A stretch of DNA of 50,742 nt from a bacterium (GTDB lineage: Bacteria; JAHJDO01), in NCBI GenBank assembly GCA_030611945.1, contig JAUWOV010000001.1, positions 1 through 50,742 of the forward strand, in the 5' to 3' direction. Each line of letters opens with the position of its first letter. Within the stretch, counting starts at the first letter, position 1. A model generated the notes under the pieces. The model saw nothing but the letters and a program-made list of their open reading frames with translations, had not been told where the DNA came from and made no database searches. The position numbers were made by a program, and so were the translations under genes. Below, one piece after another: positions 23,384 to 23,493 of this stretch.

Positions 23384-23412
23384 AGTTAACCTCTCCTATT
23401 CTGGTTAGATTA

Positions 23413-23487
23413 TCAACTAACTGAAATCCATATAGGACTTGACCATGCCATATGACCATCTTCCTGAAGGACTCGCAGTTTCACCTT
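23413..23487 (-). pseudogene. 3'-terminal relic of a third DUF3604-like gene
   Basis: The minus-strand translation KVKLRVLQEDGHMAWSSPIWISVS* matches the C-termini of 14406-16376 (RVTQADGHMAWSSPIWISTGK*) and 16475-18433. By hand alignment, 46 of 57 nt are identical to the 3' end of the 14406 gene, including a 23-nt identical run. Confidence 0.8.
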
Positions 23488-23493
23488 TTAACA

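Follow-up and report, generated by a model that had tools for sequence, protein, structure and literature searches.

The stretch of DNA analyzed here (the window) is a bacterial contig of 50,742 nucleotides (nt), JAUWOV010000001.1 of assembly GCA_030611945.1, which is contig C96 of a metagenome-assembled genome (MAG), G000, of 1.66 Mb in 119 contigs and with 3% contamination. Its minus strand carries a run of 17 genes, in which a spacer of 110 nt (23384-23493) lies between the gene of an E2 acyltransferase and GH503, a 503-aa (alpha/alpha)6 glycosidase-like gene. An earlier note on this DNA had seen in the spacer the relic of a third DUF3604-like gene and, with it, a recombination junction between two modules. 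We find that the spacer, as far as its sequence tells, is a non-functional composite scar, in which a 5′ fragment of an SDR gene and a 3′ fragment of a DUF3604 gene have been joined by illegitimate recombination.

The spacer and its two fragments

The two fragments are referred to as S′ (from SDR) and P′ (from DUF3604), and their intact counterparts in the window as S and P. The two intact DUF3604 genes of the window are par1 and par2. The features at the scar, together with the counterparts, are as follows (ORF, open reading frame; UTR, untranslated region).

23494-24645, minus strand: E2
23494-23517, minus strand: aberrant E2 tail (M-KTGGAL-stop), the last 6 codons and TGA coming from the SDR-derived leader
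23474-23514, minus strand: S′, SDR fragment from -17 to +24, with a GGAGG ribosome-binding site, the ATGATG start and the first 8 codons
23474-23477, minus strand: junction microhomology TGCG, common to S′ and P′, the overlap of the two repeats being exactly 4 nt
23395-23477, minus strand: P′, 3′ remnant of a DUF3604 gene, with the last 22 codons (LRVLQEDGHMAWSSPIWISVS), the stop and 15 nt of 3′-UTR
23417-23497, minus strand: chimeric 26-codon ORF (MMLKGETASPSGRWSYGMVKSYMDFS and stop), which opens at the retained SDR start and has the DUF3604 remnant in the wrong frame
23381-23397, minus strand: GH503 ribosome-binding site AGGAGAGG (23390-23397) and ATG start (23381-23383), read from the sequence
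21872-23383, minus strand: GH503
14391-14473, minus strand: P, the 3′ end of par1 with 15 nt of 3′-UTR
14297-14337, minus strand: S, the leader and first 8 codons of the SDR gene

The frame that the earlier note had singled out, KVKLRVLQEDGHMAWSSPIWISVS followed by a stop at 23487-23413 of the minus strand, is there exactly as described. For membership in DUF3604 (PF12228), a family of which a literature search found two incidental mentions only, we use the tail motif ..YY[IV]R[IV]xQxDGxxAWSSPIW... The relic is homologous to this C-terminal tail: at the protein level it matches DUF3604 at 80% over query residues 635-654, and it aligns with all DUF3604 tails of the genus. The similarity to the ends of both intact paralogues, which had been put forward from a hand alignment, is significant in formal alignment as well. 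Searched by BLAST in the 1.66-Mb genome of the organism, the relic matches par1 at E = 7.5e-12 and par2 at E = 1.3e-8, and the local-alignment scores lie far above those of 2000 shuffles (z = 25.8 for par1 and 17.4 for par2), with no shuffle coming near. The ungapped alignment of P′ with par1 (offset 9004) has 63/83 identical positions overall, 41/45 in the core, and 47/57 when counted so as to include the homologous TAA, and the longest identical run is 24 nt; the hand counts had been 46/57 and 23 nt, so the similarity holds and the figures each move by one.

The homology passes the par1 stop, and 10/15 of the following nt match. The TAA at 23410-23412, homologous in position to the par1 stop, is the ancestral stop of the relic, and a new TGA (23413-23415) occupies the codon before it. 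The relic is not a live member of the family: its open frame has 24 codons, with a TAA before the frame, and no DUF3604 homology was found in the spacer upstream of 23477. The differences between P′ and par1 are unevenly distributed, with 4/45 in the core and 16/38 in the flanks (Fisher p = 6e-4). At five codons the difference is synonymous only (CGG/CGA, GTT/GTC, AGC/AGT, CCG/CCT, ATC/ATA), and the sole replacement in the core, A to E, gives the residue present in par2. Such non-uniform and mostly synonymous divergence implies that the source of P′ evolved under coding constraint as a separate gene. These alignments support the derivation of P′ from a third DUF3604 gene, which would be distinct from both intact paralogues and nearest to par1, and which was presumably truncated fairly recently.

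The earlier note did not contain the other half of the scar, namely the SDR 5′ fragment at 23474-23514 and the last six codons of E2 within it, nor the second compositional step, at par1/SDR. S′ and S form a 41-nt repeat with 35/41 identical positions (85%; shuffle z = 14.9), and a BLAST search with 23300-23600 also matches 14297-14332 at E = 1.5e-6. Among the 6/41 differences, all three that are coding are non-synonymous. Both sources contain TGCGG(G)TT at the joint, in the SDR gene as ATTGCGGTT and in par1 as ATGCGGGTT, and the shared TGCG is 4 nt long and 75% GC. In reading order, the scar runs from -17 to +24 of SDR and then from -66 of DUF3604 through its stop to +15, the two fragments being out of frame with each other. 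Fragments of two unrelated genes abut here at a short microhomology. Their intact counterparts are found side by side 9 kb downstream, where the par1 3′ end comes first, then a 70-nt spacer and then the SDR 5′ end, the reverse of the order in the scar, such that the block of genes in between is bracketed by the direct repeats S′...S and P′...P.

A different reading of the relic's 75 nt, one that the earlier note had itself allowed for, is that of a conserved functional element. The spacer shows no sign of RNA, promoter or terminator function: it has no match to an Rfam family (a lone chance hit with E = 0.8 lies inside E2 and far below the gathering score), no terminator or notable promoter was found in it, and its fold is not unusual (z = -0.33 against shuffles). 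The chimeric 26-codon ORF may be translated, since its ribosome-binding site is strong and its start is coupled to the stop of E2, which it overlaps (TTATGATG); nothing suggests that the ORF has a selected function.

The scar also reaches into E2 itself. The conserved tail of E2 proteins normally builds a core of 24 or 60 subunits. Among 111 E2 homologues with the DHR motif, 106 end exactly 25 aa past DHR with ..L(E/Q)NPxL(L/M)(L/M), and the E2 orthologues in the genus have normal tails. The window E2 fits this consensus up to ..FLKRVKELSE and continues with MKTGGAL and a stop, such that its end is ..KELSEMKTGGAL as opposed to the near-universal ..LLENPxLLL. The KTGGAL codons and the stop are exactly the part of E2 that lies under the SDR-leader repeat (23497-23514), with the junction between E2 and the leader at about 23514/23515; by this coincidence of boundaries, the native E2 tail is seen to be replaced by the SDR leader. 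In E2 proteins, the C-terminal hydrophobic 3-10 helix makes the trimer-trimer 'knobs and sockets' contacts (bioRxiv 10.1101/2020.07.24.212647). Since this conserved contact helix is missing, the usual large core may not form in the window E2, which may perhaps assemble as trimers only.

Composition and gene order around the scar

The genes on either side of the scar, in reading order, are listed below. The GC content at third codon positions (GC3) is compared with that of all ORFs of at least 250 aa in the genome, which has a mean of 0.327 and a standard deviation of 0.048.

30797-31852, minus strand: tartrate/isocitrate-type dehydrogenase, first in reading order
23494-30704, minus strand: left AT-rich flank, from GntR to E2 (GntR/FCD regulator, ALDH, SucC-like and SucD-like ligase subunits, E1 alpha, E1 beta, E2); GC3 0.20-0.26, 0-5th percentile of the genome
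14406-23383, minus strand: five-gene block, from GH503 to par1 (GH503, DUF6259 twice, DUF3604 par2, DUF3604 par1), a compositional island of 9.1 kb; GC3 0.34-0.41, 68th-96th percentile
16475-18433, minus strand: par2, DUF3604
14406-16376, minus strand: par1, DUF3604
10535-14335, minus strand: right AT-rich flank; SDR with GC3 0.28 (low), then SMP-30/gluconolactonase (SGL), DUF6786 and Zn-ADH with GC3 0.22, 0.21 and 0.23 (0.21-0.23, lowest few percent)
13505-14320, minus strand: SDR gene, directly downstream of par1

In a sliding window, GC3 makes a sharp step at E2/GH503 (from about 0.20 to about 0.38) and a second step at par1/SDR. The compositional step that had been claimed at the joint is real. 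The accompanying picture, in which an AT-rich module has replaced everything upstream of the relic, is correct in placing the boundary at the joint and is incomplete otherwise: AT-richness returns at SDR-SGL-DUF6786-ADH, and the relic is fused to an SDR fragment. The two steps bracket the 9.1-kb block exactly at the repeats S′...S and P′...P. Seven of the 45 lowest-GC3 ORFs of the genome (1008 in all) sit in the two flanks. Codon usage follows the same division, with a distance to the genome of 0.36 for the block, which is genome-typical, and of 0.62 and 0.84 for the flanks; the flanks are 0.69 from each other, as opposed to 0.82 and 0.99 from the block. Within the SDR gene, GC3 is 0.34 for codons 1-50 and 0.10-0.26 later, a noisy profile that is compatible with a crossover near the 5′ end.

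Regarding the left flank, the E1/E2 set of the window (23494-26685) is a second and divergent copy. The genus-wide E2 orthologue of this genome is found at positions 1767-2912 of another contig (G000:C117); the window E2 has 42-44% identity with this orthologue, which is kept in all nine genomes of the genus, and the sister genomes have no closer match.

Two observations concern the boundary between par1 and SDR. In the mechanical ORF call the SDR gene begins at ATG 14335, inside the ribosome-binding site (ATGAGGAGGTGCTTTATGATG); the true start is probably ATG 14320, giving MMLKDKIAVITG. And the 70-nt spacer between par1 and SDR (14336-14405, minus strand) opens with a purine-rich stretch that includes a run of eight G (ATGAGGTAGGGGGGGGAGG), right after the 15 nt of par1 3′-UTR that are common to the relic. 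This stretch lies at the compositional step on the right and may be what is left of another gene start.

Relatives, and DUF3604 relics in sister genomes

In the collection searched, the phylum is represented by nine species genomes, all of one genus and 1.1-2.7 Mb in size; sampling of the lineage is very sparse. A related genome with three full DUF3604 copies, which the earlier note had proposed to look for, did not turn up: neither three intact copies nor an adjacency of E2 and SDR was found in any collection searched. The 8 sister genomes of the genus, and a sample of 52 other genomes, yielded no close relative of GH503. The relatives of GH503 in GTDB species genomes have 28-36% identity, the best among 5.8 billion proteins has 41%, and in six neighborhoods of GH503 homologues no DUF3604 gene was found upstream. 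The best homologues of the window E2 have 47% identity over the full length and 57% over one partial match. For SDR, the metagenomic relatives have 65-69% identity and lie in unrelated neighborhoods. The relatives of DUF6786 stand in other gene contexts, apart from one match at 95% identity in a 1.7-kb contig (k141_173353, ENA sample ERZ27315522), where the DUF6786 gene is followed by an ADH-like gene and the contig ends short of the joint. A match of this kind shows, at the level of sequence identity, that a close strain is present in that public metagenome. Some of the gene associations of the window exist elsewhere, DUF6786-SDR-ADH in one genome (L166) and SDR-DUF6259 in one contig (L068).

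In addition, a Deltaproteobacteria MAG (GCA_016219185.1, 8953-11512) and a matching Logan contig have a GH503 homologue, 40% identical, directly downstream of a gene for a 297-aa PHP-domain protein. The arrangement hints at a possible functional link between PHP-type enzymes and the GH503 glycosidase-like family.

Comparable relics occur in sister genomes, and in a search with a full-length DUF3604 query the matches in short frames were 3′ ends only. As an example, the sister genome G005 has on contig C101 a direct repeat of 113 nt (10709-10821 and 13512-13624) with 97% identity, which consists of a DUF3604 3′ end together with the first 14 nt of the next gene, and which brackets a three-gene insert of 2.7 kb. 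The inserted genes are a URO-D-like gene of 320 aa, a GH4 gene, and an ORF of 141 aa whose last 12 codons come from the relic in another frame. The relic retains 33 codons identical to the tail of the intact DUF3604 gene. Identity between the two flanking URO-D-like genes is only 25%.

The second example is a stack. In the sister genome G008 (contig C18, within 36000-48000 of that contig), an intact DUF3604 gene is followed by two 3′ relics (the three 3′ ends at 3561-3611, 5919-5969 and 8449-8499 of that segment). Relic one is 82% identical to the intact 3′ end and relic two is 61% identical to relic one, the repeat-family reference. The two relics share an identical run of 25 nt and a Gly-Trp variant, both of them absent from the intact gene. 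What they separate are cassettes of two genes each: GH32-like and MttB-like, M24 peptidase and Zn-ADH, sulfatase and URO-D-like. Elsewhere in the same genome (contig C21, segment 56000-62000, at about 2959-3040 on the minus strand), an orphan DUF3604-like tail (FYYVRVVQKDKEMAWSSPVCFEI and stop) is found in a frame of 54 codons and matches weakly (E = 0.007).

Such a pattern of relics likely results from repeated gene gain, anchored by homology in a conserved gene, together with the retention of the translation start of the next gene. A wider proposal is that catabolic operons in this phylum grow by homology-anchored insertion of cassettes of one to three genes at DUF3604, and that each insertion leaves the older 3′ end as a relic before the older cassette. 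The proposal draws on the stack in G008, the 97% repeat around the three-gene insert in G005, and the window scar; we consider it doubtful. If true, the order in which an operon was put together could be read from its DUF3604 relics like a stratigraphy, and the relics would lie at a hot spot where genes are preferentially gained.

Origin of the scar

The explanation to which we give an even chance of being correct is that the block was inserted into an AT-rich E2-SDR operon of sugar oxidation by one illegitimate joint and one homologous crossover. Both AT-rich flanks would once have been a single operon, GntR-ALDH-SucCD-E1-E2-SDR-lactonase-DUF6786-ADH, in which the start of SDR and the stop of E2 overlapped. 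The incoming segment, of 9.1 kb, would have carried the 3′ end of the third DUF3604 gene, GH503, the two DUF6259 genes, par2, par1, the spacer, and the 5′ region of an SDR gene. At its left end, an illegitimate joint with codon 8 of the resident SDR would have produced the fusion of the stub S′ to P′, and its right end would have been resolved by a homologous crossover in the SDR 5′ region, giving the intact SDR gene. In this sequence of events, the third DUF3604 gene would have been cut off by the end of the transferred segment, with no decay in place. Moreover, an earlier or linked event would have swapped the conserved C-terminal tail of E2 for the SDR leader. The same product could come either from homology-facilitated illegitimate recombination or from Campbell-type integration of a circle closed at TGCG. 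The joints of homology-facilitated illegitimate recombination use 3-10 bp of microhomology, usually GC-rich (PMC6382021), and TGCG falls within that range. Insertion accounts for the topology and for both compositional steps, and the repeat-flanked insert in G005 is a precedent for it.

Several observations weigh against insertion as we have described it. No genome or contig was found with an uninterrupted E2-SDR or with a donor DUF3604-GH503 arrangement. With the exception of the one 1.7-kb contig, even the closest homologues of E2, GH503 and DUF6786 do not exceed 48% identity, and their gene neighborhoods differ. It is the block, and not the flanks, that has host-like codon usage, and the insert and the recipient could be swapped. 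An SDR homologue adjoins a DUF6259 gene (in L068), and SDR could belong with the block. Finally, the 17 nt that are alike before both SDR starts, and the clipped E2 tail, need an extra event under every model.

A single reciprocal crossover at TGCG between a circle and the operon was also considered, and rejected on topology: it would fuse par1 to SDR, whereas the two genes are in fact intact.

The most serious alternative, which we regard as possible and on balance unlikely, is that a complete third DUF3604 gene once lay directly upstream of GH503 in this lineage and was lost in situ. The loss could have followed a tandem duplication with end points at TGCG in the 3′ end of that gene and in the SDR 5′ end, which would have made the joint of S′ and P′, if the first copy was then deleted from the E2 tail to -17 of the SDR leader; or an AT-rich left module ending in the SDR stub could have replaced the body of the DUF3604 gene. 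An order of S before P is indeed what a tandem duplication of a unit from P to S canonically creates at its novel joint, and the E2-tail junction finds its explanation as a deletion end point. GH503 starts 26 nt past the ancestral TAA of the relic and behind a good ribosome-binding site, as in a native gene pair; and in G005 and G008 the DUF3604 3′ relics directly precede the next gene, with the inserted genes upstream of the relics. On the other hand, loss in situ needs two large events, has left no second copy of the block, and makes a coincidence of the near-identical and extreme AT-richness of both flanks. If S′ were of the same age as S, more disruptive changes would be expected in the P′ core than the one conservative change observed, although this is a weak test (p about 0.05). 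The earlier note had concluded that a third paralogue was destroyed by the event that built the operon. That P′ is the remnant of a distinct DUF3604 gene stands; its destruction in place does not stand as it was worded, insertion of a block with a pre-truncated end being at least as likely. One could also dispense with a third gene at this position altogether, and have a single complex event of break repair or template switching connect E2 with the GH503 region and copy short stretches of the par1-SDR junction, 9 kb away, into the joint as filler. The closest matches of both pieces do lie no more than about 170 nt apart where par1 and SDR meet in the operon, and P′ agrees with par1 in the length of the tail, in the 'WIS' continuation, in where the TAA stands and in 10/15 nt of 3′-UTR. 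Yet P′ is 24% diverged from par1, and unevenly so (9% in the core, 42% in the flanks), with five synonymous-only codons that speak for selection on two genes. To our knowledge, bacterial repair has not been documented to produce templated insertions of 41 and 83 nt, and we hold templated filler to be improbable.

Two further alternatives deserve very little credence. The contig could be a chimera of two strains or loci, given an assembly of 119 contigs with 3% contamination and a shift of composition at the joint; but the overlap at the joint is 4 nt, when assemblers need a k-mer overlap of at least 21 nt, and the 24-nt identical run is inside P′, away from the homology boundary. Both compositional steps fall exactly at gene boundaries with intact ribosome-binding sites, and comparable relics exist in independent assemblies of sister species. 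An assembly artefact is for these reasons a very poor candidate. Equally hard to credit is that a conserved element of 45-75 nt has been kept as a small ORF, an RNA, or an attC-like recombination site. In its favor, orphan DUF3604 3′ ends occur in 3/9 genomes of the phylum and have another gene directly downstream in every case, they separate two-gene cassettes in G008, and the 26-codon ORF in the window retains a strong ribosome-binding site. However, the break points, counted from the DUF3604 stop, vary (about -57 nt in G000, -99 nt in G005, -75 and -45 nt in G008), which implies that the recombination was not site-specific; contig C96 is without a tyrosine-recombinase gene (no PF00589 match); and neither an Rfam match nor a stable or unusual fold was found in the spacer. 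The frames of the relics lack a start codon, the motif is in the wrong frame for the retained ORF, and the relics decay with apparent age (97%, 82%, 61%). A site-specific cassette system of the integron attC type in particular was rejected, on the varying break points, the lack of an integrase on contig C96, and a fold no better than that of shuffles.

The value of the scar is descriptive, and it brings no new mechanism. It gives a base-pair view of how a long catabolic operon was assembled in an uncultured and poorly sampled lineage, and it points to two pairs of genes that would once have been adjacent, E2-SDR and DUF3604-GH503, and to a joint made by illegitimate recombination at 4 nt. A side effect is an E2 acyltransferase with a recombination-derived tail. 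For annotation, a word of caution follows: the five uncharacterized hydrolase-like genes are a separable module, and not necessarily part of the surrounding oxidative pathway.

How does the scar compare with known systems? In the cases of homology-facilitated illegitimate recombination in natural transformation, as these are summarized in PMC6382021 (de Vries & Wackernagel 2002; Prudhomme et al. 2002; Meier & Wackernagel 2003), one end is joined at a microhomology, as it is in the window at TGCG; the other is a seamless homologous end, which in the window would lie within SDR; and a stub of the resident gene is kept beside the insert, which S′ would be. The window departs from them in that the block is host-like, not foreign, in codon usage, and in that the event is deduced from sequence only. 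With the join point of a tandem duplication, the scar shares the joining of a distal SDR 5′ end to a proximal DUF3604 3′ end (S′-P′ as compared with the reference order P-spacer-S). Unlike such a join point, it comes with one copy of the 9-kb unit from GH503 to par1 in the window, and with the E2 module upstream. The changed C-terminal helix of E2, with KTGGAL in place of ..NPxLLL, has a parallel in the trimeric or assembly-altered cores of actinobacterial E2p (Bruch et al., bioRxiv 10.1101/2020.07.24.212647), where the change is a lineage-wide insertion of three residues, whereas in the window E2, as read from its gene, it would be a by-product of a recombination joint. Above all, the scar is of a known kind, a chimeric two-gene remnant at a microhomology joint. 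Like other chimeric remnants in prokaryotic operons, it combines unrelated 5′ and 3′ stubs, out of frame, at a microhomology of a few bases, with live genes around and intact homologues nearby. It differs from the others in that the counterparts of its stubs are neighbors, in the opposite order, 9 kb downstream, and in that the leader of one stub encodes the last six residues and the stop of E2.

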